IMG/VR virus record: IMGVR_UViG_3300025840_000015
Coordinates: 32,001 to 96,000 of that record
Strand: one strand, 5' to 3'
Source: a virus
Length of the DNA stretch: 64,000 bases
In this document: positions 18,996 through 34,808 of the stretch, piece after piece
How positions within the stretch are numbered: the stretch's first letter is position 1
Layout of the letters: every line of letters starts with the position of its first letter
Notes under the pieces: generated by a model
Seen by the model: the letters and a program-made list of their open reading frames with translations, nothing else
What the model was told of the DNA's origin: nothing
Database searches by the model: none
Made by a program: the position numbers and the translations under genes

Positions 18996-18999
18996 GATT

Positions 19000-19170
19000 T
19001 TAGTCCTCGATTAGTGTAATTTTTGTTTCAATAGAGTCGGGAGATGGACATCCTGTCTTATAAAATTGCTCTGAGAGGATGTCCATGGTGTCAAAATACT
19101 CATCTTCGGTCAGATTTGTGTATAAAACCTGACCATCACTGAGAATTGAGTATCTTTCTCTGTCTGTCAT
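19000..19170 (-). CDS. hypothetical protein (56 aa)
   Basis: MTDRERYSILSDGQVLYTNLTEDEYFDTMDILSEQFYKTGCPSPDSIETKITLIED; start overlaps the upstream stop. Confidence 0.75.
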   Translation of the reverse strand: MTDRERYSILSDGQVLYTNLTEDEYFDTMDILSEQFYKTGCPSPDSIETKITLIED

Positions 19171-19934
19171 CAGATAACGCGAGTCTTTTCGTGTCCAACG
19201 CGAATGCGAGGATCACACCAAATCTCAAAACCTGCTGAGATTGCATCCAGACAGAAGGATACGTCCTCTCCACACATGTCCTGAACGTTACCAGACTCAA
19301 ATACTTGCATCTTGGGAGCAAACCAGGGATACTTCATCTCTTCGTGCTCAAATACTCCGTTCTTAATCAGGACCCATCCAAATCCTGTGTAGTCAACAGT
19401 GAATGGTTTGCGGCGCTTGGAGATACTCTCAAGCGTTTCGTGATTCATCACACCACCATTGCCACGGAAGTCCTCTTCGTCCAGCCAATGAGCAACTGAT
19501 GTGGTGCGACCGTCCTCAGTGCAATACCAACCTGCTGCAATTTCTTTGTCCATCAGAACCAATTGATAAAGTTTTTCTGTGTTGAAAACAATATCAGAAT
19601 CAATCCAAAGTTGATAATCATAATTAAGTTTTCCATCCCACGGAAGTTGATCAGGTCCACGCAGAACGTTCGCTCCTAAACACTTGCAACGTGCAAAGTT
19701 TACCATTGACGAATAATCCTGCGAGATCTGGATAGATGCTCCGCACTTCACCAAGTCAAATGCCATCTGCACAAAGGACTTGAGGAATTGATATGAAACT
19801 CCACGTCCTGGGAGACAAAATACGATTGTCTTGCCCCTCAGCATTTCTTTTGCCTGCTCATAATCCCACGTGGTGGCGGCGGAATCTGAATTCGTGGCAG
19901 GCGTTTTTGCTTTTACTGTAAATCCTTTAGACAT
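19170..19934 (-). CDS. GT-A fold glycosyltransferase-like protein
   Basis: SMVNFARC, WIDSD (DxD), TGFGWVLI, GEDVSFC, RVGH motifs. Confidence 0.8.
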   Translation of the reverse strand: MSKGFTVKAKTPATNSDSAATTWDYEQAKEMLRGKTIVFCLPGRGVSYQFLKSFVQMAFDLVKCGASIQISQDYSSMVNFARCKCLGANVLRGPDQLPWDGKLNYDYQLWIDSDIVFNTEKLYQLVLMDKEIAAGWYCTEDGRTTSVAHWLDEEDFRGNGGVMNHETLESISKRRKPFTVDYTGFGWVLIKNGVFEHEEMKYPWFAPKMQVFESGNVQDMCGEDVSFCLDAISAGFEIWCDPRIRVGHEKTRVI

Positions 19935-19956
19935 AATAGAAAGTTGTTACTGCAAT

Positions 19957-19985
19957 ATCATACGGTATTATGTAGGTTTTGTCAA
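19957..19985 (-). promoter_or_regulatory. sigma70-type promoter
   Basis: TTGACA-17 nt-TATGAT upstream of the glycosyltransferase. Confidence 0.8.
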
Positions 19986-20158
19986 CCTCGGTCAGTCACG
20001 ATCAGACAATCTCCATCAACCTCGATGTTTAGGTTTGTGCCCTCATACCATCCCTTCTCATCGAGAATCCACTGGGGAATTGTGATAAAAAATTCACCGC
20101 TAACTGTATCCACCTCTACGGTTGTTAAATTTTCTGCGCGATTTTTTTTCATTTTCAT
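19982..20158 (-). CDS. AbrB/MazE-like swapped-hairpin DNA-binding protein (58 aa)
   Basis: GEFFITIPQWILDEKGWYEGTNLNIEVDGDCLIV pattern; likely start is the ATG at 20158, not the track's upstream start. Confidence 0.75.
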   Translation of the reverse strand: MKMKKNRAENLTTVEVDTVSGEFFITIPQWILDEKGWYEGTNLNIEVDGDCLIVTDRG

Positions 20159-20359
20159 GTTTTCTTCTCTAGTTTTTATATAGGACTTTGAGGATTTTTG
20201 TGGGCACGAAAAATTTTTTGAATCGAGAAGCGTTTTATATTTACTTCGCGATCGTAACACTTTATAGATTAGGGTAGTTAGGGGTTTTATATACGGGGGG
20301 GGCATGGATCGGATCATCGGCGCCCCGCCCGCGCGGGGCACTGTGTTTTACGAAGATTG

Positions 20360-20388
20360 GGGCGGCAGGGTATAAAGAACTGCCGCCC
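20360..20388. terminator. GC-rich hairpin downstream of the last early gene
   Basis: GGGCGGCAG / CTGCCGCCC 9-bp stem with loop GGTATAAAGAA; no clear U-tract. Confidence 0.5.
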
Positions 20389-20400
20389 GCTAAGTGTAAC

Positions 20401-20820
20401 TTAGAGTCCGAACTTTTCCCGACAGATAGGACCGATTCCTAACTCTATTGAAAGAGGGTTAGTTAGTTCACGAGCGCAACACGAGCAGGTGCCAGTATTC
20501 TGCCCGTAAAGTTTAGCGGCAGAGTAAGGATCAGCGGCGACGGATTGCACCCGTTTGATTAGATCAACCTCACCCAGATTAGTGGCGTTAGAAGTGATCC
20601 AACCCAGATAAATGTTGCTCATTGTGCCCCACTGATTAACCTCTTTATCGTGAGAAAAAACATACATTTTTCCCTGATATTTCGAGGGTTTAACTATAAA
20701 GTCTTGGAATCGCATTGTGATTCGCTTAAGACCGCGATTCTGTGCCTCTTCAATTGCATTAATGATCCCGCTAAAGTTATGGGCGGGAATGGCATTGTGG
20801 CGGATGATGGGATGGCGCAT
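20401..20820 (-). CDS. DUF6011-like zinc-binding phage protein
   Basis: C-terminal GTCSCCARELTNPLSIELGIGPIC motif. Confidence 0.75.
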   Translation of the reverse strand: MRHPIIRHNAIPAHNFSGIINAIEEAQNRGLKRITMRFQDFIVKPSKYQGKMYVFSHDKEVNQWGTMSNIYLGWITSNATNLGEVDLIKRVQSVAADPYSAAKLYGQNTGTCSCCARELTNPLSIELGIGPICREKFGL

Positions 20821-20915
20821 GATGCTTACCGGTGGTTTGGTTGGTGCGGGTTCTGCCCCGCGTGATCTAATGGTAAAGAGTAAGGGGGGGAGAATGCCCC
20901 CCCGTTAACATTAGT

Positions 20916-21215
20916 TCACACTCCCAGGAACCGGGCGATCCGCTCACGCTTGCGAAGCGGCAGGAGGCGTTTGTAGGAAACAAAGGAGCGGCGCCCAATG
21001 CTGTATTCATAGCGGCGCACCATCCCTTGTGCCGCCATCTCCTTAAGAAGGATGGAAACGGTGGTGCGTGCCTCCTTGGGCATCCCCAGCGCCCGGTTGA
21101 TCTCAGAGGGTCCAAGACCGTGGCGGGTTTTGTCCCCATCCATCGGCAGAACCGACAGGATCGCCCATTGGTAGGTTGCGCCGAATGCCTTGCGATCGGT
21201 GATGGTGGTGAACAT
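20916..21215 (-). CDS. winged-helix DNA-binding protein (putative)
   Basis: LGPSEINRALGM...TVSILLKEMAAQGMVRR followed by a beta-wing; has its own promoter (TTGGCA-17-TAATTT). Confidence 0.6.
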   Translation of the reverse strand: MFTTITDRKAFGATYQWAILSVLPMDGDKTRHGLGPSEINRALGMPKEARTTVSILLKEMAAQGMVRRYEYSIGRRSFVSYKRLLPLRKRERIARFLGV

Positions 21216-21314
21216 GGTTCAGTGGTGGTGAACGACCCCCATAAATTACCGGATCCACAGGAACCTGCCAACGTGGGGTTGTGACACCTTTAGGATTGGC
21301 ACAACCCCAGTTTG

Positions 21315-21509
21315 TATAAAGAATAAAACAAGGATTGCAAGATATAAAGAATAAGACAGGACTGAATGTAAAGAATAAACCACACCACTGACCAATAGTT
21401 TACATTCAATCCTGTGTTATTCTTTATACTCAGAGAAAATATAAAGAATAAAGAACTGATTAGGATTCATTCTTTATTCTTTATACTCAGTGTTAAGTAT
21501 AAAGATTAA
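21315..21509. repeat. AT-rich array of TATAAAGAATAA motifs in both orientations
   Basis: copies at 21315, 21343, 21367, 21440, 21498 (+) and 21417, 21474 (-); perfect 16-bp inverted repeat 21440-21455/21470-21485. Confidence 0.8.
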
Positions 21510-21512
21510 GAT

Positions 21513-21623
21513 TTATTTCTTTTTCCTCCTTTTGTTTGCTGATTGTTTCTTCGGTGTTAGAATGTTCTTAAACCTTTTATCAGGACGTGATTTACCATCC
21601 CGATGAATCCATTTGTTTGCCAT
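21513..21623 (-). CDS. small basic protein (36 aa)
   Basis: MANKWIHRDGKSRPDKRFKNILTPKKQSANKRRKKK, hand-translated. Confidence 0.55.
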   Translation of the reverse strand: MANKWIHRDGKSRPDKRFKNILTPKKQSANKRRKKK

Positions 21624-21628
21624 GTTCT

Positions 21629-21793
21629 TTATACAAACTGTGCAGGTGAACCACAAGACTGATAGAATCTAATCATTCTCTCTGCCTCTTCCTTTGTAGT
21701 GAAAGATTGTGTTCGCCATTGGCATTCATTATATGGTGATATGTATTTAATTGTGAAACCAATTGAATTAATTTGTTTTTGATTGTTGTTCAT
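21629..21793 (-). CDS. hypothetical protein (54 aa)
   Basis: MNNNQKQINSIGFTIKYISPYNECQWRTQSFTTKEEAERMIRFYQSCGSPAQFV; downstream of a TACAAT box. Confidence 0.7.
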   Translation of the reverse strand: MNNNQKQINSIGFTIKYISPYNECQWRTQSFTTKEEAERMIRFYQSCGSPAQFV

Positions 21794-21839
21794 TGTTTGG
21801 TGTTTGTTTTAATGTTGTTTTATTGTATTGTGCGCACAC

Positions 21840-21878
21840 ATCTCGTCGAGATTCTGTATGCGCACATCTCGTCGAGAT
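21840..21878. promoter_or_regulatory. pair of ATCTCGTCGAGAT palindromes (operator-like)
   Basis: 13-bp interrupted palindromes at 21840-21852 and 21866-21878. Confidence 0.65.
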
Positions 21879-21880
21879 TT

Positions 21881-22015
21881 CTATACTTCCTCAACCTCCA
21901 ATCCAAGGAGTTGATCAACAGTAACCTCCAAAAGTGCTGCCAATTCTTCATCACTCATCCATGTGATGTCGATCGGCATTTCTTCGATCTGTGCGGTGGT
22001 GGTGAAGTGATCCAT
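21881..22015 (-). CDS. small acidic protein (44 aa)
   Basis: MDHFTTTAQIEEMPIDITWMSDEELAALLEVTVDQLLGLEVEEV; has its own promoter and leader cassette. Confidence 0.65.
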   Translation of the reverse strand: MDHFTTTAQIEEMPIDITWMSDEELAALLEVTVDQLLGLEVEEV

Positions 22016-22101
22016 GGTTTCTGGTGGTGGTGCGGGTTCCTGTCCCGCTTGCTCTAATGGTAAAGGGTAATGGGGGCGTTGCCGCCCCCCTGGCAGACGG
22101 T

Positions 22102-22311
22102 TCAGCGATTGGCACGACGGCGGCGGATCTCATCGCCATAGGTGTGCGCCTCATCGTCGTAACGACCCTCAGCGATGGGGTTCCATCCCCGCATTGCCTC
22201 AGCGGCGCGGCGGGCATCCTGGGCGCTCCAGAGCAGCGCCTCATCGCTCATGCTCTTGGCACGTGCCTCCCAAGTGGCGAAATCAGCGGCGGTGGCGTAA
22301 GTGGCGATCAT
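22102..22311 (-). CDS. hypothetical early protein (69 aa)
   Basis: MIATYATAADFATWEARAK...; ATG at 22311 just downstream of TACAAT (22336-22341). Confidence 0.7.
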   Translation of the reverse strand: MIATYATAADFATWEARAKSMSDEALLWSAQDARRAAEAMRGWNPIAEGRYDDEAHTYGDEIRRRRANR

Positions 22312-22452
22312 GGTCCGGTGGTGTGAACTGCGATAATTGTAGCAGATAATTGGGGGGGGAGAGAGGAGGAGATCGATCGAATCCCCATTGTGACGATTTA
22401 TGAACAGTCCACCGATTGTCTGATTCTGGCGCCGGGCGCGTGTAGAATAAGG

Positions 22453-22511
22453 GGACAATCAGATGAGGGGTGGGGTAACCCCGTTGATGAAATGGTCGCC
22501 ACGCCCCCTGC
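22453..22511 (+). ncRNA. candidate structured small RNA, copy A
   Basis: follows TAGAAT (22443); similar in sequence and fold to 24622-24682 with compensatory changes. Confidence 0.55.
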
Positions 22512-22606
22512 GCAATTTTATTTGCGAACAATTGTGAAATGTGTTGACCCGACCGGATCCCCTATGCTAGGATTGGGGTAGAACCTTTTGTATGTTACGG
22601 ATTGTT

Positions 22607-22631
22607 AAAGAAAGGGGGCGTTGCCGCCCCG
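22607..22631 (-). terminator. intrinsic terminator
   Basis: - strand GGGGCG-GCAA-CGCCCC-CTTTCTTT just after the stop at 22639. Confidence 0.75.
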
Positions 22632-22638
22632 TTGTGGT

Positions 22639-22926
22639 TCAATGGAAAAAGTCGTAAGGCGTTTGCTCTGTCGGATCATATCCCTCCCAGAGCATTGCTA
22701 CAGTGCTAGCAATGCTGCGCTCTGCCTTCCAGCAGTCTAGGATGACATCCAGTGCCCAACCGTCATCAAGGGTGGCAGGGGGGCATTCCTGCGCCTCCAC
22801 AGCATCCCAGAACTCTCCAAAGGACTCATCCTGCCAGCAGGATTCGGAATCCAGCGCCATGCGCCGGTTGTATTCTTGGCGCTCTTGGCGCTCCATCTCT
22901 GCAAGGGTGCTGTTGTGAAAATCCAT
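22639..22926 (-). CDS. acidic early protein (95 aa)
   Basis: MDFHNSTLAEMERQ...; TTGACC-17-TATACT promoter at 22956-22984 places the start at 22926. Confidence 0.7.
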   Translation of the reverse strand: MDFHNSTLAEMERQERQEYNRRMALDSESCWQDESFGEFWDAVEAQECPPATLDDGWALDVILDCWKAERSIASTVAMLWEGYDPTEQTPYDFFH

Positions 22927-23001
22927 GGTTCCGGTGTGGTGCGGTTTGCTTTGAAAGTATAGAGGCAAAGGGAGCAGGGGTCAACCTGCCCCCCGTAGGG
23001 A

Positions 23002-23175
23002 TCAGACCGTCTGATCCTTAATGGCATCATGTACCTCTCCCAGCATGTCATACCAACGGGTTAGACCTTTTTGACCCATTTCGTGCCCTTTGGCGGACAG
23101 GAGCGCGATTCGGATCGTATCCCAATCGCCTGCGGCAAGGGTGACGGTTTTGTTTTTGGTGGTGGTGGTGCTCAT
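23002..23175 (-). CDS. hypothetical early protein (57 aa)
   Basis: MSTTTTKNKTVTLAAGDWDTIRIALLSAKGHEMGQKGLTRWYDMLGEVHDAIKDQTV; has its own promoter cassette. Confidence 0.7.
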   Translation of the reverse strand: MSTTTTKNKTVTLAAGDWDTIRIALLSAKGHEMGQKGLTRWYDMLGEVHDAIKDQTV

Positions 23176-23264
23176 CAGTCTCGGGTGTGGTGCGGGTTCC
23201 TGTCCCGCTTGAGCATATCCTACATCAGAAGGGGGGATCCGTCATCCCCCCCAGTGGACGGTGG

Positions 23265-23927
23265 TCAGACCGTCACAATCCTGTCTGCCTTTTTCTTTGC
23301 TGTTCCATGCGACGGAAAACATACAATAACGTTACGGTCGGAGTTAGCACAAATGCCGCAAGTTGCACATGTAACATTATCATGAATCTTTGCAGGGCAG
23401 ACTACACATTTGCGACCGTTGGTTGTTGTGAAGAACCGGCGCGATTCTGTGGAGGGAACAACAGCAACGGCAGGGATTCCGTGCTCTGTCATCACTTTAT
23501 CAGCAACCTCTACAGACTCACAGGATGCAGAGATTGTGAAACCTTTGCTGTTTGCTTCCTTGATAATTTCAAGGTTCTCAGTGTTGAGAACGTGGTGAGT
23601 GTAAGTGTAACCTTTGCGCCCTTTGTTTGCTGCCACCAGATCAGCAACACTGGCGCGATCGATGTTCCCATCAACATGGGGCAGATCACCGGATACGTTG
23701 TGGCGCCAGATCTGACCGCGTGCAATCCGGCGAACCTTAGAGAGGAATTCCTCCCATACAATGCCGGTTTCGGATACCTTGCGCCATGCCGCGCCCTGGA
23801 AGTGGAATTTGGCGTAGCACGCTTCCGCCATGGGGCAGGTAGCGGGGCAGGATGCCTGTTCAGTGGTGCTGGCAGGGATCCTGCCAAGTTGGGCGTTGCT
23901 GCTGGCGGGGTTGAAAGAGACGCGCAT
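23265..23927 (-). CDS. Cys-rich GP88/DUF7227-like protein (possible Fe-S, radical-SAM-related)
   Basis: SCPATCP...CYA, RHNVSGD, YTYTH, CPA...TCATCGIC...HG motifs. Confidence 0.7.
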   Translation of the reverse strand: MRVSFNPASSNAQLGRIPASTTEQASCPATCPMAEACYAKFHFQGAAWRKVSETGIVWEEFLSKVRRIARGQIWRHNVSGDLPHVDGNIDRASVADLVAANKGRKGYTYTHHVLNTENLEIIKEANSKGFTISASCESVEVADKVMTEHGIPAVAVVPSTESRRFFTTTNGRKCVVCPAKIHDNVTCATCGICANSDRNVIVCFPSHGTAKKKADRIVTV

Positions 23928-23997
23928 TGGTGTGGTTGCGACTGATCAAACAATAACAGGGGGGAGAGCGCCTGCCAACCCCCCTAGTGGACGGTTA

Positions 23998-24477
23998 TCA
24001 GATCGCCACACCATCCTGGCGAAGGCGATCCACAAGACGGGATGCCATGGCGCCACAATGGGGGCACTTTGTGGCGTATTTGATCTCTGATTTAATTTTA
24101 TGATCTTTCACCCGTGCGAACTTATAACGATAAACTTTGCTAAGTGTAAGCATTGCCTGCCTTTTTGTAATGTCGTTTTCATCAATCTCACGGTAGATTG
24201 TCACCAGATTGTGATAGGACAGGGTAGGATTACGGCGGATTTGATTCAATCGTGAAACTGCAAGTTTGGCGAATACTGCATCACCAGTAGTTTCAGTGAC
24301 TACATCAATCAGATAATCGTGAAAAGCAATAAGTTCTTCTTCTTTCTTTTGCTGCTGTTCTTTCTGTTCTTCCTCTTTCTTGATTGATTCGATCTGGGAG
24401 GTAATTTCCCGGAAAGATTCCACGAACTGCTTCTGCAGTTCGTTCAGGTTTGCGGTGAGAGTTTGGAGGTCGCTCAT
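23998..24477 (-). CDS. hypothetical early protein with N-terminal coiled coil (159 aa)
   Basis: start MSDLQTL at 24477 after the leader and promoter; C-terminal CPHC. Confidence 0.7.
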   Translation of the reverse strand: MSDLQTLTANLNELQKQFVESFREITSQIESIKKEEEQKEQQQKKEEELIAFHDYLIDVVTETTGDAVFAKLAVSRLNQIRRNPTLSYHNLVTIYREIDENDITKRQAMLTLSKVYRYKFARVKDHKIKSEIKYATKCPHCGAMASRLVDRLRQDGVAI

Positions 24478-24621
24478 TGTTCTGGGTTGGGGTGGAATCG
24501 GATCCGTTTGTCCGATGGGCACAGTATGCCCCGGCAAGACGGGGCAGATCAACCAACCCTGTGCCACTACCAGAACCGTCCACAAGGGCGTTGTAAGGTC
24601 TTAAAATGCTCTATTGTATGG

Positions 24622-24682
24622 GGACAATCGAAAGAGGGGAGGGGTATCCCTGTAGACGACAATACATCGCCACCGCCCCTGC
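24622..24682 (+). ncRNA. candidate structured small RNA, copy B
   Basis: follows TATTGT (24612); homologous to 22453-22511. Confidence 0.55.
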
Positions 24683-24707
24683 CATAAAATAATTGTTTCA
24701 ATATGTT

Positions 24708-24738
24708 AAAAAAAAGGATCCCGCACCACCAGGATCCT
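24708..24738 (-). terminator. intrinsic terminator with UGGUGGUGC loop
   Basis: - strand AGGATCC-TGGTGGTGCG-GGATCCT followed by a T run. Confidence 0.7.
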
Positions 24739-24882
24739 CTAGACTCCAATCACCAGATACGCTATACCCATATTTTATCTTAACGTTCTCGCAGAGTGAC
24801 TTTTTTTTTCTTTACAATGTGGGCAAACTCCTTCCCACACGGATAACTTTATTTTAGAGAGGCAAATCCCTTCCTCTTAAGA

Positions 24883-25077
24883 TTATTGTATCATCCAATG
24901 TGGGTCATTGTCAAGTGCAACCCAGAAAAAGTTACGATTGTTTGCACTTCTTAAGAATAGTTTGTTGTTCACGATTTGTTCAATAATGCATACAGAATCG
25001 CGTGCCATTAAATTGGCGAATCTGTTTTTTGCTTTTGATGAAATCGGTTTGACTTGAATGGTTTCCATGATGTCCAT
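24883..25077 (-). CDS. conserved cyanophage hypothetical protein
   Basis: VKPISSKAKNRFANLM...FFWV...DPHW; TATAAT box at 25090-25095. Confidence 0.75.
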   Translation of the reverse strand: MDIMETIQVKPISSKAKNRFANLMARDSVCIIEQIVNNKLFLRSANNRNFFWVALDNDPHWMIQ

Positions 25078-25107
25078 TGCAATGTGTTCATTATAATGGA
25101 TGGTGAT

Positions 25108-25162
25108 AATCTCGTCGAGATTGTGTGTGCCAATTGTTATGGTGTCACAATCTCGACGAGAT
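25108..25162. promoter_or_regulatory. pair of ATCTCGWCGAGAT palindromes flanking the GTG..CAC early-promoter dyad
   Basis: palindromes at 25108-25122 and 25150-25162; dyad GTGCCAATTGTTATGGTGTCAC at 25127-25148. Confidence 0.65.
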
Positions 25163-25171
25163 CCTTTTAGA

Positions 25172-25393
25172 TCACTGCTTGACGAGAGTCAGTTGATTCT
25201 CACGCAGTGCATTGTTGAAAAACTTACCAACGCTACCATCAGAATTGATGGTTTCCGTCAGAGTCGAAATAAACTGTTCTGCATTAACCACACCGTAGGT
25301 ATAGTCTCGACCACCAGTAAAGGTGACGGTCACTTGATCATCGACAACATCAGAGATAGATTCGATGGCGGAAGAAGTGAACTTAGGGAACAT
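25172..25393 (-). CDS. KTSC-like domain protein
   Basis: SSAIESI...VTVTFTGGRDYTY...SVGKFFN pattern. Confidence 0.7.
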   Translation of the reverse strand: MFPKFTSSAIESISDVVDDQVTVTFTGGRDYTYGVVNAEQFISTLTETINSDGSVGKFFNNALRENQLTLVKQ

Positions 25394-25464
25394 GATTTAG
25401 AATTGTGTAAAGGAACAGATGGAGTCTTTAGGGCGCTGCCGTTCCCTGTGTGATCAGTCTAGCA

Positions 25465-25611
25465 TCAGAACTCGATGGTGTCTAGTGTAGGACAAACAGT
25501 TTCGCCAGATTCACAAGTGTCACTCCCATCACAGAGAACATCAAGAATTCGAAGGATTTCTGATCCATTGGAACCTTTGCGGAGTGCGTGGATGTAAAGT
25601 TCTTTAGTCAT
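25465..25611 (-). CDS. hypothetical protein (48 aa)
   Basis: MTKELYIHALRKGSNGSEILRILD...; TAGAAT box at 25635-25640. Confidence 0.65.
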   Translation of the reverse strand: MTKELYIHALRKGSNGSEILRILDVLCDGSDTCESGETVCPTLDTIEF

Positions 25612-25681
25612 TGTTGCCTTTGGTTGACTCTGTAATTCTAAGGGCATGGCGGGGACATTGCTGCCCCCCTTGTGCCACTGC

Positions 25682-26188
25682 TCAGACTGTCATAAGGAGA
25701 GCAGGTTGTTCTGTAACGAAATCATACTCTTGGGTGTTAGTGTCACCCCAACCCAGTTTCCAACACTGCCATCCCAAACCAGGAGTAAACAGATAGCACC
25801 ATTCCTCTCCACAATCACCTGAGAGAAACTCATCGAAGTTGCTCATCCTAGGAGGAGCATCTTCACCTCGCTCACTATAATACAGTGGAGCAGGTTTTGC
25901 TTTTACTGGAGAATAGACCCACTGTTCATTATCAGTGGTGATATATTCTACAGTTCTGTTACCCTCAGAATCATAGATCTCTTTTTTGAGAGGAACAGAA
26001 TCCCAACGATGTGTGGTGTGCAACTGCCCCATATCACCACCGTTGATGAGTTCTTCTACCTGTTCTTTATACAGGTAGTTGTCAATAAGTTGGCGACCAT
26101 TGTGTTGAATGTAACCATCATAATGACAGTAAACACTAATGATTTGATCGGGTCCGAGAGCAAGACCGATGCGAGAGCGAGTTCCCAT
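25682..26188 (-). CDS. conserved phage hypothetical protein (YCHxDGY family)
   Basis: MGTRSRIG...SVYCHYDGY...EELINGGDM...EWCYLF. Confidence 0.75.
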   Translation of the reverse strand: MGTRSRIGLALGPDQIISVYCHYDGYIQHNGRQLIDNYLYKEQVEELINGGDMGQLHTTHRWDSVPLKKEIYDSEGNRTVEYITTDNEQWVYSPVKAKPAPLYYSERGEDAPPRMSNFDEFLSGDCGEEWCYLFTPGLGWQCWKLGWGDTNTQEYDFVTEQPALLMTV

Positions 26189-26254
26189 GGTGTGTTGGGT
26201 GAACTGAGATCAGTGTAGCAGGTTTGGGGGATGCTGTCATCCCCCTGTCAGGAA

Positions 26255-26431
26255 TCAGTAACTCAGATCCTCCAGATATTCTGTGAAGATTTCTGACACT
26301 TCATCCCATTGGGCGTCCGTCAGAAAACCGCACTGATCCTCCATCCAGTTGGAAACCATAGACCAGTCTGCATCCATCTCTTGGATGAACTGGGGCAGGG
26401 ACTGGAGAGCACTGATGAAATTAGAAGTCAT
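26255..26431 (-). CDS. hyperacidic small protein (58 aa)
   Basis: MTSNFISALQSLPQFIQEMDADWSMVSNWMEDQCGFLTDAQWDEVSEIFTEYLEDLSY; no Lys or Arg. Confidence 0.65.
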   Translation of the reverse strand: MTSNFISALQSLPQFIQEMDADWSMVSNWMEDQCGFLTDAQWDEVSEIFTEYLEDLSY

Positions 26432-26555
26432 GGTCGGAGTTGAGTTCCTGTTGAAAGTCTAGCATGGATTCCTGCATTTCGGGGATGTCGAAGATCTCAC
26501 CCGGAGAATCCATGATCTCATTCCAGAGATCAGTGTCGATCAGATCAAATTCCAT
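26421..26555 (-). CDS. hyperacidic small protein (44 aa)
   Basis: MEFDLIDTDLWNEIMDSPGEIFDIPEMQESMLDFQQELNSDHDF; overlaps both neighbours as in a coupled operon. Confidence 0.65.
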   Translation of the reverse strand: MEFDLIDTDLWNEIMDSPGEIFDIPEMQESMLDFQQELNSDHDF

Positions 26556-26739
26556 GAAGATTCTTAAGGTCTTGGATGGTGTGAGAGAGACCTGCCTTGC
26601 AGTATCCTACAGCATATGGGTAGGAACAGTCAAGATCACAGTCAGGTTTTGTTAGGTCTTGGGGACGTGCTGAGTATAGAACTTTTTGCATCCATTCCAG
26701 TTCCTGAATGATTTTTTCCAGTTTGGTTTTGTCGGTCAT
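26545..26739 (-). CDS. hypothetical protein
   Basis: ORF track; SYPYAVGY motif; promoter cassette at 26764-26822. Confidence 0.7.
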   Translation of the reverse strand: MTDKTKLEKIIQELEWMQKVLYSARPQDLTKPDCDLDCSYPYAVGYCKAGLSHTIQDLKNLHGI

Positions 26740-26818
26740 TGGAGTTGGGTTCCGAACAAACGAATCATCTCACGGATTCCGGAGGGATGCAACGTGCCAG
26801 TGGACAGTCTATAAAGTG

Positions 26819-26944
26819 TCACCTGCGATAGGGAGAACTCCACCATTTGCGGTATGCAGTGTAAAGAATCACTGCAGTCGAAACGATACCGACCAGACCC
26901 AGAACTGTCACAGGGTCGCCGGAGAAATCATAAGTGTCTGGCAT
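26819..26944 (-). CDS. small membrane protein (41 aa)
   Basis: MPDTYDFSGDPVTVLGLVGIVSTAVILYTAYRKWWSSPYRR; one hydrophobic helix. Confidence 0.6.
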   Translation of the reverse strand: MPDTYDFSGDPVTVLGLVGIVSTAVILYTAYRKWWSSPYRR

Positions 26945-26950
26945 AATGAA

Positions 26951-27103
26951 TCAAAAAAACGGATCAACTTCGCGAATTGTAACATCAACTTCCTCTCCAC
27001 CTTCAAGACCTAAAAGGTCTCTCCAGTCGAGTTTGTCAATGTCCAGATCATCATAACATGCAATGTCAAGTGTGACTGTGACTAAACGCTTTTGTGCTAG
27101 CAT
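26951..27103 (-). CDS. hypothetical protein (50 aa)
   Basis: MLAQKRLVTVTLDIACYDDLDIDKLDWRDLLGLEGGEEVDVTIREVDPFF. Confidence 0.65.
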   Translation of the reverse strand: MLAQKRLVTVTLDIACYDDLDIDKLDWRDLLGLEGGEEVDVTIREVDPFF

Positions 27104-27133
27104 GTGTCTTATGAGTATTGTTGATGTATTGTA

Positions 27134-27301
27134 TCATGCATAATGCTTATATGCAAGATCCTGATAGTCATTGTCACACCTATCATAATCCTCATCATTG
27201 TCGTCATAAGACTCAAGACGAGAATAATGTTCGTAGTATGAGTCTTCGTCAAGACAATGATCATTGATGGTGATGTAGTCGAGATCGTAGTCGTCGTACA
27301 T
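27134..27301 (-). CDS. Asp/Tyr-rich micro-protein (55 aa)
   Basis: MYDDYDLDYITINDHCLDEDSYYEHYSRLESYDDNDEDYDRCDNDYQDLAYKHYA; first gene after TTGTAT-17-TACAAT. Confidence 0.6.
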   Translation of the reverse strand: MYDDYDLDYITINDHCLDEDSYYEHYSRLESYDDNDEDYDRCDNDYQDLAYKHYA

Positions 27302-27303
27302 AA

Positions 27304-27389
27304 CTCGTCGAGATTCTACTGTTTACTTGTGTATTGTAGCATGATTCTCGTCGAGATACAACTAATTGCCTGATATATTCTCGTCGAGA
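27304..27389. promoter_or_regulatory. three CTCGTCGAG palindromes overlapping the leftward promoter
   Basis: 27304-27312, 27346-27356 (in the promoter spacer) and 27379-27389. Confidence 0.65.
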
Positions 27390-27476
27390 TCTCATACCAT
27401 ATATGTATAAAAACGTCAAGGAATTGTGTGGATTTGCAAATTTTTATGTCTGGATGTGAAGATTTTTGCCGGGCGC

Positions 27477-27505
27477 TTGACATTTTCGGCGTCTTGTGAT
27501 AGTGC
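27477..27505 (+). promoter_or_regulatory. putative rightward sigma70 promoter firing into the repeat array
   Basis: TTGACA-17 nt-TAGTGC with extended TG; the -10 match is weak. Confidence 0.45.
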
Positions 27506-27533
27506 GCACGCCAAACTCACAAGACCTGGGCAC

Positions 27534-27643
27534 ATTACCATAAGATATAAGAGTTATTACCATAAGATACCAGGCACATTACCATAAGATATAAGAACCA
27601 TTATCATAAGATATAAAAGTTATTATCATAAGATATAAGAGTT
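27534..27643 (+). repeat. 5 x 22-bp tandem repeat (iteron-like)
   Basis: ATTAYCATAAGATA plus 8 semi-variable nt, units starting at 27534, 27556, 27578, 27600, 27622. Confidence 0.9.
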
Positions 27644-27774
27644 CAAAACCCTTTATTTATACAATTTAACTTCATTTTAATCTCTTATATCCTGATTTCA
27701 ACAAAAAATGCCCAAAAAAGCACTGTTACAATATAAATTACATACATACAATACAGTTAAACACTATTGCCCCA

Positions 27775-28479
27775 ATGTCAGGCGCCATTTACCTCATAAT
27801 CAACAAACAAAATGGACACAAATACATAGGAAAAACCACAGATTCAATAGATTCTGCCTGGAAAGAGCATATTATCCTATCAAATCGTATGGATAGGAAT
27901 CCACTACATCTTGCTCTTCGTAAGTATAAACCTCACATGTTTTTACTTAAACCAATAGAGGATGTAGATAATAATTTAGATGAAAGATATGATTATTGGT
28001 TAGATAGATATAATCCAGAATACAATTCTAACTCCTTTACTGATGAGAATACTGAAGTTAAAACAATTGAAGTAAAGAAAGAAATAGTTTCTACCCCCAA
28101 AAAGAAGTCTAAAAGACCAGAAAAAACCAAGGGATACACAATACAAGGTATGAATCTGGCAACTGGTGAGATTAGAACATGGGAATCTGCCAGGGAGGCA
28201 GCACGTGATATTACTGGTGATGCAAAGAAGAATTCAAATATATTACGATGTGCTCGTAATGGATATAAGTATTATGATCATGTATGGAAAATTATTGAAG
28301 ACTTTAGATTCAGAAAAGTGAAGGCGGTAAATAGAAAAACATGGCAGGAATTTCACTTTGACAATATAGCAGATGTATTTAAAAAGACCGGTGTTAAAAG
28401 AGATCCACGTTTAAAGAAAGTATTAGAAAGTAATGGTAGATTAACATGGAAAGGATATATGTGGTTCTATACGGAGTAA
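27775..28479 (+). CDS. GIY-YIG domain protein with two NUMOD1-like HTH domains (probably catalytically impaired)
   Basis: GAIYLIINKQNGHKYIGKT...EYN; WESAREAAR and FDNIADV repeats. Confidence 0.85.
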   Translation: MSGAIYLIINKQNGHKYIGKTTDSIDSAWKEHIILSNRMDRNPLHLALRKYKPHMFLLKPIEDVDNNLDERYDYWLDRYNPEYNSNSFTDENTEVKTIEVKKEIVSTPKKKSKRPEKTKGYTIQGMNLATGEIRTWESAREAARDITGDAKKNSNILRCARNGYKYYDHVWKIIEDFRFRKVKAVNRKTWQEFHFDNIADVFKKTGVKRDPRLKKVLESNGRLTWKGYMWFYTE

Positions 28480-28483
28480 ACAA

Positions 28484-28654
28484 ATGAAACGCCCATTAAA
28501 CACATGTTTTGATTGCGACTATACATGGTATCCACGTGGTCATTATATAAGTAAACACTGTCCCCATTGTGGTTCTAATAACGTAGGCATACAATACATA
28601 CAAATAATCCCACTACTGTTAATAGTGGGACTACTGTTGTTTATTTTAATTTAA
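28484..28654 (+). CDS. zinc-ribbon plus transmembrane small protein (56 aa)
   Basis: MKRPLNTCFDCDYTW...CPHCGS...IIPLLLIVGLLLFILI. Confidence 0.6.
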   Translation: MKRPLNTCFDCDYTWYPRGHYISKHCPHCGSNNVGIQYIQIIPLLLIVGLLLFILI

Positions 28655-28656
28655 TT

Positions 28657-28884
28657 TCAATCCTCGAACCTTTCGTTCCATTTACCATGAAACTTTTGCA
28701 TAATACCCTCAATCATTTTGTGCCTTTTGGAAAGATATGATTCTGGGTCCATGTTATGCAGTTCGGTGATATTACCAAATGAAAAGAACATAGAATCCAG
28801 TGTATGACACATGATCTCATTCATAATCTCATGTTCTTCAACAGTAAATGTGAGCGCAATGTCATGCTCTTTCATGGTCTTCAT
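28657..28884 (-). CDS. hypothetical protein
   Basis: ORF track; tiles with neighbours. Confidence 0.65.
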   Translation of the reverse strand: MKTMKEHDIALTFTVEEHEIMNEIMCHTLDSMFFSFGNITELHNMDPESYLSKRHKMIEGIMQKFHGKWNERFED

Positions 28885-29095
28885 GTTTAGATTTCCTTGA
28901 TTTTGTTTTAACTAATTGGTCAATTTGATTCCGATAACATAATACCAGAACATGATACTTTTGATGTATGGATGGATCCGGCATTGGCGTTGTTGAAACT
29001 TCTATCGTAATATATTCAGTTCCAACATGATAAACCCATCCCTCAATGTTTTGTTGTTCCCAGACAACATAATCATTTTCTTTTGGACTATACAT
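28862..29095 (-). CDS. conserved cyanophage hypothetical protein
   Basis: YSPKENDYVVW...EGWVY...YITIE. Confidence 0.7.
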   Translation of the reverse strand: MYSPKENDYVVWEQQNIEGWVYHVGTEYITIEVSTTPMPDPSIHQKYHVLVLCYRNQIDQLVKTKSRKSKHEDHERA

Positions 29096-29255
29096 CCCTC
29101 ACTGCACGTAGATAATTAGGATTAATTCCACGTCCAACATATTCTGACAATAGTGCATCACATCGTTCCCGTGTTAATTGTCTTGCAGATGGATCAATTA
29201 GTTCCCATCCATTCGTATAAAGTTCTTCAATACGATAAAGAATTGTTTCAGTCAT
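29088..29255 (-). CDS. hypothetical protein (55 aa)
   Basis: MTETILYRIEELYTNGWELID...GINPNYLRAVRDV; fills the gap between track ORFs. Confidence 0.7.
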   Translation of the reverse strand: MTETILYRIEELYTNGWELIDPSARQLTRERCDALLSEYVGRGINPNYLRAVRDV

Positions 29256-29482
29256 GTCGTAAACTCCGATACAATACCAGACTCATGATCACCATCCAAG
29301 GGATACACTAGAGCACTCTGAATACTTGGCATGATGTTATGCACATAGGTATCATCATAAGTATCTGACGACGAGAGAATATCAAATACCTCCGAATCGT
29401 TCTCTCCAATTACGGCAACAATACCGCCATATTCAGAACTTGGAAATGGAACCCAATAATCCACCAGATAGATGTTTTTCAT
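29252..29482 (-). CDS. conserved cyanophage hypothetical protein
   Basis: YLVDYWVPFPSSEYGG motif. Confidence 0.75.
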   Translation of the reverse strand: MKNIYLVDYWVPFPSSEYGGIVAVIGENDSEVFDILSSSDTYDDTYVHNIMPSIQSALVYPLDGDHESGIVSEFTT

Positions 29483-29530
29483 TAGTTCAGTTAAATTACC
29501 ATGTCAGTTTAGTTTAGTTTGTTTGATTTG

Positions 29531-29707
29531 TCAAATAATGAATTCGGACAAATAATAATCAACGGTGATCTCCAGTTTTTCCGCCTGGCGTTCATAGAAC
29601 ATCTTCATCTCTTGACGATCATGATAATCATCAATCTCCTGTTCGGCATGTTCCATGAAGTCCTGCCATGCACGAATGAACATTTCAATTTCCTTTTGTT
29701 CCATCAT
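29531..29707 (-). CDS. hypothetical protein
   Basis: C-terminal AEKLEITVDYYLSEF; likely start MMEQKE. Confidence 0.6.
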   Translation of the reverse strand: MMEQKEIEMFIRAWQDFMEHAEQEIDDYHDRQEMKMFYERQAEKLEITVDYYLSEFII

Positions 29708-30113
29708 TAAATTGTTTGTAAAGAACAGTTTCAAGTAGTGCCGCCTCTTTTTCATGTGGTTGATCCTCATATGAAAGATCCTCCACACTGACCAGATTAT
29801 AACACAATCTACCACGTCGGTAGGTCAGTTTACCATCAATCCATTGTGATACATGCACCATCTCATGTAACAATACCCGAACATAATCCTCGGCATCCAG
29901 ATAGGTCTGAATCTCAATTAGAAAATCTCTGGGATTCTTGGATTTGGCATCAACCACATCACAATAACCCCAGACATGTTCACGCTTTAATCCACGGTGC
30001 AATACATTAATCGTCACAAAATAATCGGGATAATAAGTTTCCAAATACCATGCAATTACATTCTCACATAGTTTCTTGGAATAACCATATCCCTCATGTA
30101 AAATTAATGTCAT
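29685..30113 (-). CDS. HExxH zinc metallopeptidase-like protein
   Basis: LLHEMVHVSQ plus downstream YEDQPHEKEA. Confidence 0.75.
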   Translation of the reverse strand: MTLILHEGYGYSKKLCENVIAWYLETYYPDYFVTINVLHRGLKREHVWGYCDVVDAKSKNPRDFLIEIQTYLDAEDYVRVLLHEMVHVSQWIDGKLTYRRGRLCYNLVSVEDLSYEDQPHEKEAALLETVLYKQFNDGTKGN

Positions 30114-30204
30114 GTTAAAATGGCGAAAAACAATCGTGTCATCCAGTTCATGAAAATAAAGAAACTGGAAACAAACATAATCTTTTCAAGTCGTGATAAC
30201 ATCA

Positions 30205-30459
30205 TTAGTAATAGTGCCTTCTACAGGGAACATTTTCATACCATGTTCTTACATAACCCGATCTCCATCTGTTACCGGGAATATATTCCTCCCGGCGGAC
30301 TCTCTTGGTGCAATGAACATGACGATGATGATGACGATGACGTGATCTGTGATCACTATCCTCCTCTACAAATGGTTCCCAAAATTGTTGCCATGTGATG
30401 GCATTTGCCGGGGAACATAAAAGAATACCCGAAATTGCCAGGACTAATAGTTTTTCCAT
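30205..30459 (-). CDS. signal-peptide-bearing hypothetical protein
   Basis: MEKLLVLAISGILLCSPANA signal; His/Arg tract; paired Cys. Confidence 0.7.
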   Translation of the reverse strand: MEKLLVLAISGILLCSPANAITWQQFWEPFVEEDSDHRSRHRHHHRHVHCTKRVRREEYIPGNRWRSGYVRTWYENVPCRRHYY

Positions 30460-30761
30460 TTATCATCCAAATGATCTAAATGATTTAGTCTGGAACTGAA
30501 CAGTGAAAAACATGCCCATGCAACTCCAAGTGAAATGATCAGAAAATAGATCATGCGGCATCATCCATGTGATCATCAACCAGTGATGAATCAGGAAGAT
30601 TGTTGATCCGAGACTTCATTCGATTCATCTTGGAAATCTCCCATCCGTTCATTTCTGCATCATGCACCACACCATCCAATTGGCGGCGCTCGCTTTCCGT
30701 ATGATAATGACGATAATCGTTCATGATTCATCTCCTCAGATAACATGTTCATTATAACACA

Positions 30762-31253
30762 TCATTTCTGATAAAGGTATCCTCCAGACCAATCGGCATT
30801 TTCAAACAGATACTCACGATCTTCGATCAATCGCAAATCATAACGAACTCCCTTGGCAGGAGACTTCCATGATGCAGACTTATAAACTTCACCGGTCTTA
30901 CGATCCACAAAACAATGCACGGAACGTTGACCACCACCATCAATGAATACAATCTTGTGATATTTCTTACCGCTCACAATCTCATAATCAATGTCACATC
31001 CACCATTCTTCAGTTCAACAATCTTATTAAGATGATACTGATACGTGGCAGAATTAGGATCCTGCTCCGGTGCGGCAGCATTTAGAATAGAACGCTCGTG
31101 ACCACGAATTGCATAATCACGATAGTTATCCTTCAGGGCATCAATCAGCATCAGAGACCACTTACGAACATTCAGTTCAATGGTGTTCCTGGCATCCTGC
31201 TGGGATGCATATTCTGCGAAGGTTGGATTGGGAAGTGAGATCATGGTGATCAC
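30762..31253 (-). CDS. conserved T4-like phage hypothetical protein
   Basis: KKYHKI...SVHCFVDRKTGEVYKSASWKSPAKGVRY motif. Confidence 0.8.
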   Translation of the reverse strand: MITMISLPNPTFAEYASQQDARNTIELNVRKWSLMLIDALKDNYRDYAIRGHERSILNAAAPEQDPNSATYQYHLNKIVELKNGGCDIDYEIVSGKKYHKIVFIDGGGQRSVHCFVDRKTGEVYKSASWKSPAKGVRYDLRLIEDREYLFENADWSGGYLYQK

Positions 31254-31269
31254 CCTTGATTACCTCCAT

Positions 31270-31329
31270 ATTATAAGGACTCACAAGGCGCTTCGGCAAT
31301 GCCGTTGTGACAGTTCTTCATGTGGACAC
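31270..31329 (-). promoter_or_regulatory. early promoter with GTG..CAC dyad
   Basis: TATAAT at 31270-31275; dyad GTGACAGTTCTTCATGTGGACAC at 31307-31329, 31 bp upstream. Confidence 0.7.
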
Positions 31330-31330
31330 T

Positions 31331-31364
31331 AAAAAGCGCCCTGAAGAGTCTCAGAGCGCTTTTT
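31331..31364. terminator. bidirectional intrinsic terminator
   Basis: AAAAAGCGC...GCGCTTTTT. Confidence 0.7.
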
Positions 31365-31373
31365 GTGGAAGGA

Positions 31374-31520
31374 TTAGCGAGCATATCTACATTTTGGATT
31401 CTCCATCTGTTCGGCACAAATAGAATCATATGCATCCAACATCTTCATATCTCTATTTGAGAGAAATGAATTATACATCAAAATACCAATTACGGCAAGA
31501 AAAATGTAAGAGGTTTTCAT
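31374..31520 (-). CDS. small membrane-anchored protein (48 aa)
   Basis: MKTSYIFLAVIGILMYNSFLSNRDMKMLDAYD... Confidence 0.6.
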   Translation of the reverse strand: MKTSYIFLAVIGILMYNSFLSNRDMKMLDAYDSICAEQMENPKCRYAR

Positions 31521-31522
31521 TT

Positions 31523-31681
31523 TCAATCAATGTCGGTGTAAAGAAACTTGTTATCTGGAAAAATACCCATTTCTTCGCATCGCACTTCATAGGCAATTCG
31601 CTTTAGCAACTGCAAATCATAATTTTCAATGCTTTTAATCATGGTGCGACGAATCTGGGCAGTTTGAGTGTCGTCTTTCAT
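31523..31681 (-). CDS. hypothetical protein (52 aa)
   Basis: MKDDTQTAQIRRTMIKSIENYDLQLLKRIAYEVRCEEMGIFPD... Confidence 0.65.
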   Translation of the reverse strand: MKDDTQTAQIRRTMIKSIENYDLQLLKRIAYEVRCEEMGIFPDNKFLYTDID

Positions 31682-31684
31682 GGT

Positions 31685-31849
31685 TCAGAGAGATTCGATG
31701 ATGGCGCGACGTGCTTGCATCGCGGTAAATTGATTGGGGAAAGTTGCGATCTTGGTGAAATCGTCTCTCCAGTATAGTGCCCATTTGGAGGTTCCCAGCA
31801 TTGCTTGAACCTTGATGGGATTGTCGATTCCCAGTGGATAGGGTTTCAT
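31685..31849 (-). CDS. hypothetical protein (54 aa)
   Basis: MKPYPLGIDNPIKVQAMLGTSKWALYWRDDFTKIATF... Confidence 0.65.
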   Translation of the reverse strand: MKPYPLGIDNPIKVQAMLGTSKWALYWRDDFTKIATFPNQFTAMQARRAIIESL

Positions 31850-31980
31850 GGGGTTGCCTCCCTTGATTTCCTAATAATACATGATCCATGCCATGCCACA
31901 ACCACCAATGGACCAGTCCAAAAACTGGCACAAAAAAAGGAAGACTCTCGCCTTCCTCTGATAATGATTTCAGTAAAGAA

Positions 31981-32145
31981 TTACCGATTATGCAACTCTT
32001 TAAGAGACCGAACATAGAATTCCGTAAACCTTTCCATTCTTGTTGGACAAACAGTGCTTGGATCAAAATTGATGGCATTTTTAAGTGCCATCATCTCAAT
32101 CATTTCATCATCCGTTAATTGACCTGCTTTTATAGGAAGAGACAT
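31981..32145 (-). CDS. hypothetical protein (54 aa)
   Basis: MSLPIKAGQLTDDEMIEMMALKNAINFDPSTVCPTRMERFTE... Confidence 0.6.
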   Translation of the reverse strand: MSLPIKAGQLTDDEMIEMMALKNAINFDPSTVCPTRMERFTEFYVRSLKELHNR

Positions 32146-34228: not shown

Positions 34229-34456
34229 TCAATCGTCGTAAATTTTACATTCAAGTGCATTTGGATTTGCATCACAATACAATTCTAGTGGAGTTGGATC
34301 ATGAGTATCATCTGGATGATTCAACTTATATGCTTCAAGTTGTTCCAGTTCAGACTCAATGTGACGGCGACGTTGTGCAGAAATGTTAGGATTCTCCAGT
34401 TCATCCTTGTCCATTTCAATGTGTTTGTTGATATTTTCCATTGTTTGTATCGACAT
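34229..34456 (-). CDS. cp12: CP12 Calvin-cycle inhibitor (auxiliary metabolic gene)
   Basis: C-terminal PTPLELYCDANPNALECKIYDD signature. Confidence 0.92.
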   Translation of the reverse strand: MSIQTMENINKHIEMDKDELENPNISAQRRRHIESELEQLEAYKLNHPDDTHDPTPLELYCDANPNALECKIYDD

Positions 34457-34461
34457 AATAC

Positions 34462-34686
34462 TTATTTATTAAAAAACATACCAAAATTGCCACTATCTCC
34501 CTTTTTTCTAGACTCAAGTTTATCTAGAATATCATCAGTTGATCTGAGAGTTTCAATTTCAAAAATTAGTTTTGATAGTGTTGTGCATATTATAGGACGT
34601 TCTTGTCTTGCTGCAAATGCAAGAGCATTTCTGAGAGATGCTTCTGCTTCTTTCAAAGAATCATCTACAGTTTTACTAATTGCCAT
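34462..34686 (-). CDS. conserved cyanophage hypothetical protein
   Basis: SLKEAEASLRNALAFAARQERP. Confidence 0.75.
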   Translation of the reverse strand: MAISKTVDDSLKEAEASLRNALAFAARQERPIICTTLSKLIFEIETLRSTDDILDKLESRKKGDSGNFGMFFNK

Positions 34687-34808
34687 TTCAATTTCTCCAG
34701 TTTTTAATTTCTTCTTGAATGATGAGTTTCAGTTCTTCATCTGACATTTCATTCATCCATGACCACATTGGATCTTCTCGATCCCAATCAAAAGTAAATG
34801 ATCCATCA

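Follow-up and report, generated by a model that had tools for sequence, protein, structure and literature searches.

The stretch analyzed here, called the window, is 64,000 nucleotides of IMG/VR virus record IMGVR_UViG_3300025840_000015 (positions 32,001 to 96,000), and the element in question is an array of five 22-bp direct repeats followed by a gene for a GIY-YIG protein that has lost two catalytic residues. The array sits in a cassette that recurs in related phages; the cassette and its arrays exist, and they are conserved with or without the GIY-YIG gene. The explanation we prefer, at about even confidence, is that the array is the window phage's own version of the variable repeat segment in a conserved, single-copy, non-coding cyanophage cassette with origin-like control at the DNA level, and that the gene is a passenger or a secondary regulator. 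Iterons beside a dead nuclease are a striking juxtaposition, not a functional pair.

The cassette and its repeat segment

The source record is a 116-kb IMG/VR virus, about 54% complete, and the phage is a T4-like cyanomyovirus with S-SRM01 and P-SSM2 as relatives. Thirty-two homologous loci share a common upstream architecture in a fixed order, consisting of ATCTCGWCGAGAT palindromes, a TGTGTGGGT element, a GC-rich block, the promoter TTGACA-N14-TGn-TAnnnT, a conserved leader, tandem repeats, and boxes, the last usually being two or three direct ATTCTCAAT boxes plus one inverted. The promoter pattern is present in at least 120 IMG/VR contigs, with a single copy per contig. Among the 80 loci retrieved, half have a GIY-YIG gene 165-380 nt downstream, and about 29 with enough downstream DNA have none, so that the cassette abuts the same convergent minus-strand genes as in the window. 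Synteny of the window module with the family is kept on both sides. The isolates that carry the cassette are S-SRM01, DSL-LC03, S-SKS1, and P-SSM2, always in unannotated gaps. It is common to Kyanoviridae myoviruses and to the unrelated siphovirus S-SKS1 (Llyrvirus).

A sequence-only profile of the cassette core, R1, was built from 50 other loci with the window excluded, and it has a single match in the window at 27444-27538 (26.7 bits, E = 2.3 × 10−7, model positions 7-104 of 107). A search of 596 Gb of prokaryote genomes with the promoter pattern gave 38 chance-level matches, none of them cyanobacterial, and mimicry of a host element was rejected on this ground. Two short contigs from metagenome-assembled genomes hold the full cassette, and are probably mis-binned phage. 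Literature searches on cyanophage origins, DnaA boxes, and early non-coding RNAs turned up no description of the cassette. The parts of the cassette in the window are as follows.

27302..27390, unstranded: the 13-bp palindrome ATCTCGWCGAGAT in three copies (at 27302, 27345, and 27378), preceding the cassette promoter
27425..27467, + strand: two 22-bp direct repeats by Tandem Repeats Finder (TRF), immediately before the GC-rich block, with a TGTGTGG(G/A)T element conserved across alignment A3
27444..27538, + strand: cassette core, comprising upstream element, GC-rich block, promoter, and leader
27477..27505, + strand: putative sigma-70-like promoter, with −35 TTGACA (27477-27482), a 17-nt spacer ending in TGn (27497-27499), and −10 TAGTGC (27500-27505)
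27491..27525, unstranded: inverted repeat GTCTTGTGA (27491-27499) / TCACAAGAC (27517-27525), bracketing the −10, with a half-site resembling the array core
27534..27643, + strand: five 22-bp direct repeats, each of two 11-bp half-periods with core ATAAGA (TRF 5.0 copies, score 136)
27632..27691, unstranded: inverted repeat between the last array core (27632-27648) and its inverted copy (27675-27691), 17 nt, 88% complementary, with a 26-nt AT-rich gap

Within the array, a 14-nt core, ATTAYCATAAGATA, is identical in 5/5 copies and is separated by a variable 8-nt linker. Each unit contains the ATAAGA core twice, at an 11-bp offset, the second half of copy 2 being degenerate. The core does not occur again in the window or in the 116-kb record (chance expectation 0), and an IMG/VR scan with the array core ATTAYCATAAGATAYMARR gave 41 single scattered matches and no second array. 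The exact 22-bp unit is private to the window phage. The inverted core copy CTCTTATATC at 27682-27691 belongs to the 17-nt inverted repeat, which fills the slot where relatives have ATTCTCAAT or DnaA boxes. The initial annotation had reported the five repeats and the inverted copy, and both are as it described. It had also pointed to an AT-rich tract at about 27650-27710; the tract is there, but the least stable local DNA is the right half of the array, 27580-27680, with an AT fraction of 0.80-0.82. That segment ranks in the top 1% for meltability in the 18-32 kb island around it, but at the 2.4th percentile of the whole window.

For comparison across the family we used 90 distinct cassettes, 55 with a GIY-YIG gene and 35 without. 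Arrays stand at the position of the window array in 37/90, with periods of 10, 11, 20-22, 30-34, 40, and 66 bp, among which 20 bp is seen twelve times and 21-22 bp seven times. The repeats of different cassettes have a core in common, GCATTTATAAG(A), which is up to 35-fold enriched and whose spacing peaks at 10-11, 20, and 40.

The window promoter is homologous to the family consensus, and its transcription start is predicted near 27512. The left half-site of the inverted repeat around the −10, TCTTATG, is near-invariant across cassettes. A right half-site, CAYAAGA, follows 23-26 nt away in 50/90, and none was recognized in the remaining cassettes. Farther upstream, the ATCTCGWCGAGAT palindrome is found 9 times in the window where 1.0 match was expected, always between genes and within the same island (positions include 21840, 21866, 25109, 25150, 27302, 27345, and 27378), and nearly every related locus has several copies in the corresponding position. 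The leftward early genes probably use it as an operator or promoter element. Related phages, the siphovirus S-SKS1 included, have as many as about 10 copies ahead of their cassette promoter.

What the cassette may do

The cassette is flanked by two minus-strand gene blocks, and its sigma-70-type promoter, which we take as strong, would fire against the general direction of the genes. After the promoter come a conserved leader of about 25 nt, then repeats phased at about one helical turn (here 2 × 11 = 22 bp), then direct and inverted DNA boxes and AT-rich DNA. We suggest that, as a DNA element, this arrangement exerts origin-like early control. A hypothetical protein would coat the phased repeats and the boxes, the latter being host DnaA boxes in some relatives and array-core copies here, and the neighboring easily melted DNA would be opened with the aid of transcription from the promoter, as at T4 oriE and oriF. 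A free-standing gene of homing-endonuclease type would have inserted at the 3' edge of the cassette, replacing a T-rich box; the window copy of that gene, having lost its catalytic Arg and Glu, would be evolving fast while keeping two helix-turn-helix (HTH) modules, as a passenger or a secondary regulator.

Evidence for an origin-like role comes from the box slot. There, 15/90 cassettes have 2-4 perfect DnaA boxes against 0.038 expected, mostly TTTTCCACA. DnaA boxes and the ATTCTCAAT (ATTCTCA-type) boxes are mutually exclusive, and both are arranged as direct copies plus one inverted. Because these 15 relatives carry clusters of host DnaA boxes in the same slot, an origin-like role of the cassette is plausible, if unproven. 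In S-SKS1 (L201, HQ633071, about 151.2-151.5 kb) a 22-bp × 4.7 array is followed by three perfect DnaA boxes, and DSL-LC03 (L200) has about 5 more DnaA boxes upstream of its promoter.

Several observations weigh against this reading. The window cassette has 0 DnaA boxes (TTWTNCACA) and no ATTCTCAAT box, so the argument for an origin is borrowed from relatives. The window −10 hexamer, TAGTGC, is poor and lacks the final T. A clear array is found in only 41% of cassettes, and hence the array is not essential to the function of the cassette. In G000, S-SKS1, and S-SRM01 neither GC skew nor gene orientation varies along the genome, and the cassette marks no extremum; for T4-like phages GC skew is uninformative. 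The protein that would bind the TATAAG-type repeats is still hypothetical, and the adjacent HTH protein may conceivably be the binder in this one phage. Last, the substitution rates given below for the window protein are rough.

The alternative we would take most seriously, while judging it unlikely, is that the cassette is a pure transcriptional switch with no origin, the repeats and the inverted repeat at the −10 being operators (for example, of an OmpR-type regulator) that time the divergent early genes. Head-to-tail phasing of 10-11 bp is typical of response-regulator sites, a half-site-like inverted repeat does bracket the −10, and ATCTCGWCGAGAT palindromes are numerous a short way upstream. 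In some relatives the repeats are TTTACAAG with a 10-bp period, near the RpaB HLR1 motif, and HLR1 has been reported in cyanophage genomes (PMC6525291). However, the repeats are downstream of the start site, and in gene-less cassettes they point away from any gene. Most units fit HLR1 poorly as judged by eye, and the RpaB/HLR1 or PhoB-type reading is kept only as a rival. The DnaA-box variants point instead toward replication or an initiator.

An early non-coding RNA gene is quite unlikely. It would make a transcript of 200-250 nt carrying repeated UAUAAG-type motifs to sequester or guide a factor from the host or the phage, with no role in replication. The strongly conserved promoter with its conserved leader would suit such a gene, as would an orientation antisense to all neighboring genes, and gene-less cassettes show a weak hairpin and T-runs within about 230 nt. 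The tests for RNA structure went the other way. Rfam 15 has no match at gathering threshold in the window except tRNAs, and none even at E ≤ 1 in 27300-27800. The predicted window transcript is no better folded than shuffles (z −1.0). The sole candidate helix in relatives, formed by the ATTCTCAAT inverted repeat, has 29 one-sided, uncompensated changes against 0 compensated, which rules it out as an RNA helix and indicates that the ATTCTCAAT copies are DNA sites, not the arms of an RNA stem. In addition, the sequence and length of the repeats vary freely, 59% of cassettes are without an array, and DnaA boxes are DNA sites.

There is little probability, in our estimate, that the array is a minisatellite prone to slippage, selectively neutral and functionless in itself, within a cassette spacer that tolerates such change. 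Close relatives do differ in the number, length, and sequence of their repeat units, 53/90 cassettes are without a clear array, and the window array resembles a duplication of a 44-nt unit, but neutral slippage predicts neither the clustering of periods at multiples of 10-11 bp nor the enrichment of the shared core.

The GIY-YIG gene beside the array

The gene and two short motifs next to it are located as follows.

27654..27661, − strand: match to the T4-type late-promoter consensus TATAAATA, pointing back into the array
27732..27739, + strand: late-promoter-like TATAAATT, matching by consensus only, 36 nt ahead of the start codon of the GIY-YIG gene
27775..28479, + strand: GIY-YIG / double-HTH protein, 234 aa, homing-endonuclease-derived, Arg27 → Ala, Glu75 → Tyr

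The window protein matches Pfam PF01541, GIY-YIG, with E = 2.3 × 10−5, above the cut-off of that family, and the whole protein belongs to phrog_3404 in PHROGs (E = 5.6 × 10−27). A family profile of 19 relatives aligns with I-TevI (1LN0/1MK0) at E = 7 × 10−6, placing the Ala of DSAW at R27 and the Tyr of ERYDYW at E75, while the window protein retains Y6, Y17, H31, and N90 in I-TevI numbering. The AlphaFold model has an I-TevI-like N-domain, for which Foldseek against 1MK0 gives a TM-score of 0.70 (range 0.70-0.72) and a root mean square deviation (rmsd) of 1.8-2.3 Å. Next is a linker, residues 84-117, with a predicted local distance difference test (pLDDT) score below 50, indicating disorder, and then two beta-beta-alpha-alpha-beta modules, residues 123-173 and 182-233, with pLDDT about 85. 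With the tail folded alone, the first HTH module matches 8B6E at Z = 8.0, the HTH of I-HmuI at Z = 7.7, and the DNA-binding domain of I-TevI at Z = 5.6, other chains scoring Z ≤ 4. Sequence searches of the C-terminal half against PDB found nothing, so that its placement came from structure comparison alone. Pfam NUMOD1 (PF07453) has no match to the window protein at E ≤ 1 and matches 2/19 relatives at E = 0.03, below cut-off. No zinc finger was detected in the window protein. The description of a nuclease that lacks two residues essential in I-TevI, with a DNA-binding tail predicted to be intact, holds on this alignment and model.

Whether the gene belongs with the array can be asked of the 90 cassettes. 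A clear array is present in 23/55 with the gene and 14/35 without (odds ratio 1.08, Fisher p = 1.0). Counted by hand from the protein table, an array accompanies about 12/30 dead proteins and 5/13 intact ones, and close protein relatives adjoin different arrays or none. A GIY-YIG homologue is found nowhere in the complete genomes of S-SRM01, DSL-LC03, and S-SKS1, nor in five gene-less contigs. What does change with the gene is a T-rich box, found in 19 gene-less cassettes and 0 gene-bearing ones. Gene content agrees between nearest neighbors in cassette kinship in 71% of cases against 53% when shuffled, and 29% of nearest neighbors differ. Elsewhere the slot is taken by HNH-like or zinc-ribbon ORFs (open reading frames), and an HNH-like ORF there suggests a shared landing site for homing-endonuclease genes. 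In L113 and L150 the ORF in the slot is of 171 aa on the + strand, its HNH assignment being tentative (Pfam HNH_3, E = 0.0013, below cut-off).

The minus-strand motif [AT]ATAAATA, counted at +60 to +330 from the cassette promoter of related loci, is present in 17/55 cassettes with the gene and 2/35 without it (background 0.019 per 270 nt), and this late-promoter-like element may travel with the GIY-YIG gene cassette. A 20-nt array-like match inside the gene (28262-28281) was judged to be chance.

Given the 55/35 split, the equal frequency of arrays, and the three complete genomes without a homologue, the gene is best read as an optional insertion of homing-endonuclease type. From these comparisons, its pattern of presence and absence appears to be the behavior of a free-standing homing-endonuclease gene at a landing site, and the gene itself appears to be an optional mobile passenger that replaces the T-rich box, not a dedicated partner of the cassette.

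The history of the protein family is one of repeated catalytic loss. Among 43 distinct complete proteins, 13 keep Y-Y-R-H-E-N, and 30 have changed R27 and/or E75 to many different residues, in at least 6 independent events on the tree. The largest dead clade has a ratio of nonsynonymous to synonymous substitution (dN/dS) of 0.22 (nuclease domain) and 0.21 (tail), hence it is maintained by purifying selection. The window protein is a 1.67-substitution branch inside an intact clade (support 98/100). Against its nearest relatives, dN/dS is about 0.5-0.9 in the nuclease domain, compared with 0.14-0.22 within groups, and about 0.3-0.4 in the tail, all rough values because dS is near saturation. This pattern would fit a nuclease half that is decaying or fast-changing and a DNA-binding half that is kept. 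Two proteins that look N-terminally truncated, L087 and L135, are probably not so: the upstream frame is open, and they probably use non-ATG starts.

A reading that would keep a role for the protein is that T4-like cyanophages, and some siphovirus ones, start replication or time their early genes at the cassette, with an exchangeable slot that holds host DnaA boxes in some lineages, ATTCTCAAT boxes in most, and here iterons read by the adjacent former homing endonuclease, recruited by way of its HTH modules as a lineage-specific initiator or regulator. We consider it highly improbable. More improbable still is the idea that the dead GIY-YIG/HTH protein is the specific binder of the 22-bp repeats, at an initiator-plus-iteron origin or a packaging or segregation site: it can draw on a gene that shares strand and promoter with the array and lies 131 bp downstream, on the loss of R27 and E75 with two well-folded HTH modules kept, on a big dead clade whose dN/dS means that some non-nuclease function is selected, on I-TevI also binding an operator as an autorepressor (PDB 1T2T title), and on a window slot filled by array-core copies in place of the usual boxes, but arrays are as common without the gene, even in complete genomes with no homologue, their presence tracks neither catalytic state nor protein clade, and the window nuclease domain is a long-branch, near-neutral offshoot.

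That last idea, a homing endonuclease domesticated as the repeat-binding protein of the array, was the central proposal of the initial annotation, and it is not supported; the check it had named, co-occurrence of Arg/Glu loss with an upstream array among homologues, failed on the counts of dead and intact proteins above. Its reading of the two catalytic substitutions agrees with the I-TevI alignment. The two intact NUMOD1-like HTH modules that it described are supported insofar as the predicted structure matches the HTH of I-HmuI and I-TevI, but not by a significant Pfam NUMOD1 match. As for the origin module, the layout is indeed origin-like, with a predicted promoter leading into phased repeats and easily melted DNA, and what falls away is the pairing of initiator and iterons. 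An iteron origin is expected to have at least 3 phased repeats of ~17-22 bp beside AT-rich DNA, and the window has 5 × 22 bp, which together with the tract after it make up the least stable DNA in the island; an iteron origin is also expected to have a linked, required initiator gene, and arrays are equally common without an adjacent gene.

Genome setting and known systems

Nearly all window genes are on the minus strand. The stretch 18000-32000 is a GC-rich island (GC 0.40-0.55 versus about 0.30 in the flanking structural genes) that houses small early-type genes and the cassette, and it is the sole window stretch with a GC skew ≥ 0. The immediate neighbors of the cassette and its gene are as follows.

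27134..27301, − strand: 55-aa acidic protein (MYDDYDLDY...) from the ORF list, first gene of the leftward transcription unit diverging from the cassette
28484..28654, + strand: second gene in the + strand unit, for a 56-aa zinc-ribbon protein that has a C-terminal membrane helix
28603..28635, unstranded: 15-pair hairpin from terminator and repeat scans, at the end of the + strand unit where the convergent minus-strand genes meet

The sequence at the start of the acidic gene (27301) is kept upstream of the cassette in related loci. Transcription had been thought to diverge at the array, which is correct on the left, where that minus-strand gene starts; on the right, minus-strand genes converge on the module. 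The GIY-YIG gene had also been called the only sizeable + strand gene, and this is roughly right. Near the array the credible + strand genes are the GIY-YIG ORF and 28484-28654 only, and other long + strand ORFs overlap real minus-strand genes. An unverified ORF of 147 aa at 34301-34744 (+), with no PHROG match, is either a real second + strand gene or spurious. Homologues of the zinc-ribbon protein are encoded directly 3' of the cassette, without a GIY-YIG gene, in L112 and L121; whether or not a GIY-YIG gene intervenes, this zinc-ribbon/membrane-helix gene comes after the cassette on the + strand.

Elsewhere in the window are tandem tRNA genes at 46766-47147 (−), 2× tRNA-Leu(TAA) and 2× tRNA-Ile(TAT), and three giant minus-strand ORFs at 3232-16032 (4266 aa), 40679-46390 (1903 aa), and 48418-54564 (2048 aa). 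Coding tandem repeats at 57679-57919 and 59279-59599 (36/108-nt and 51-nt units) lie in neighboring structural-type genes.

T4-like cyanophages are major mortality agents of marine and freshwater picocyanobacteria, and to our knowledge they have no mapped replication origin and no mapped master element of early control. A single-copy, phage-specific cassette in Kyanoviridae and S-SKS1, sometimes with host DnaA boxes, is a concrete site to test for an origin or early control, and it doubles as a landing site for homing-endonuclease genes. The catalytic losses in the GIY-YIG family, at least 6 of them with one selected dead clade, form a natural series on the decay of selfish nucleases or their recruitment as DNA-binding proteins.

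A close parallel is with the T4 origins. T4 oriE consists of an early promoter with evenly spaced direct repeats, and oriF and oriG of a promoter with an unwinding element, although the T4 iterons have no proven role even in T4 (Kreuzer and Brister 2010, PMC3016281). The cassette resembles all three in having, in a T4-like phage, an early-type predicted promoter leading into phased repeats and easily melted DNA. It has no sequence similarity to them, and the period is 22 (11) bp here versus 12 in T4. Some cassette relatives have host DnaA boxes, which T4 origins do not.

Against the iteron origins of R6K gamma, F, P1, and lambda ori, the likeness is in several ~20-bp direct repeats in helical phase beside AT-rich DNA and a divergent promoter, and in an inverted half-site pair that overlaps the cassette promoter as in Rep autoregulation. 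The difference is that the array has no cognate Rep gene tied to it, the sole adjacent DNA-binding gene is dispensable across the family, and the window cassette is without a DnaA box.

The window protein is like I-TevI and the T4 Seg proteins in its GIY-YIG N-domain, flexible linker, and C-terminal HTH modules as in I-TevI and I-HmuI, and its gene is like free-standing homing-endonuclease genes in that related phages either have it or lack it at one fixed intergenic site. The protein differs from I-TevI and Seg by the substitutions at Arg27 and Glu75 and by two tandem HTH modules. The best structural match of the HTH module is Paulinella sCTP-23166 (PDB 8B6E; rmsd 1.7 Å over 52 residues), which binds DNA and whose fold has been equated with the HTH domains of I-HmuI and I-TevI (PMC10319021). 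That protein differs in being a stand-alone, eukaryote-encoded one of 52 residues, and the identity is about 15-21%.

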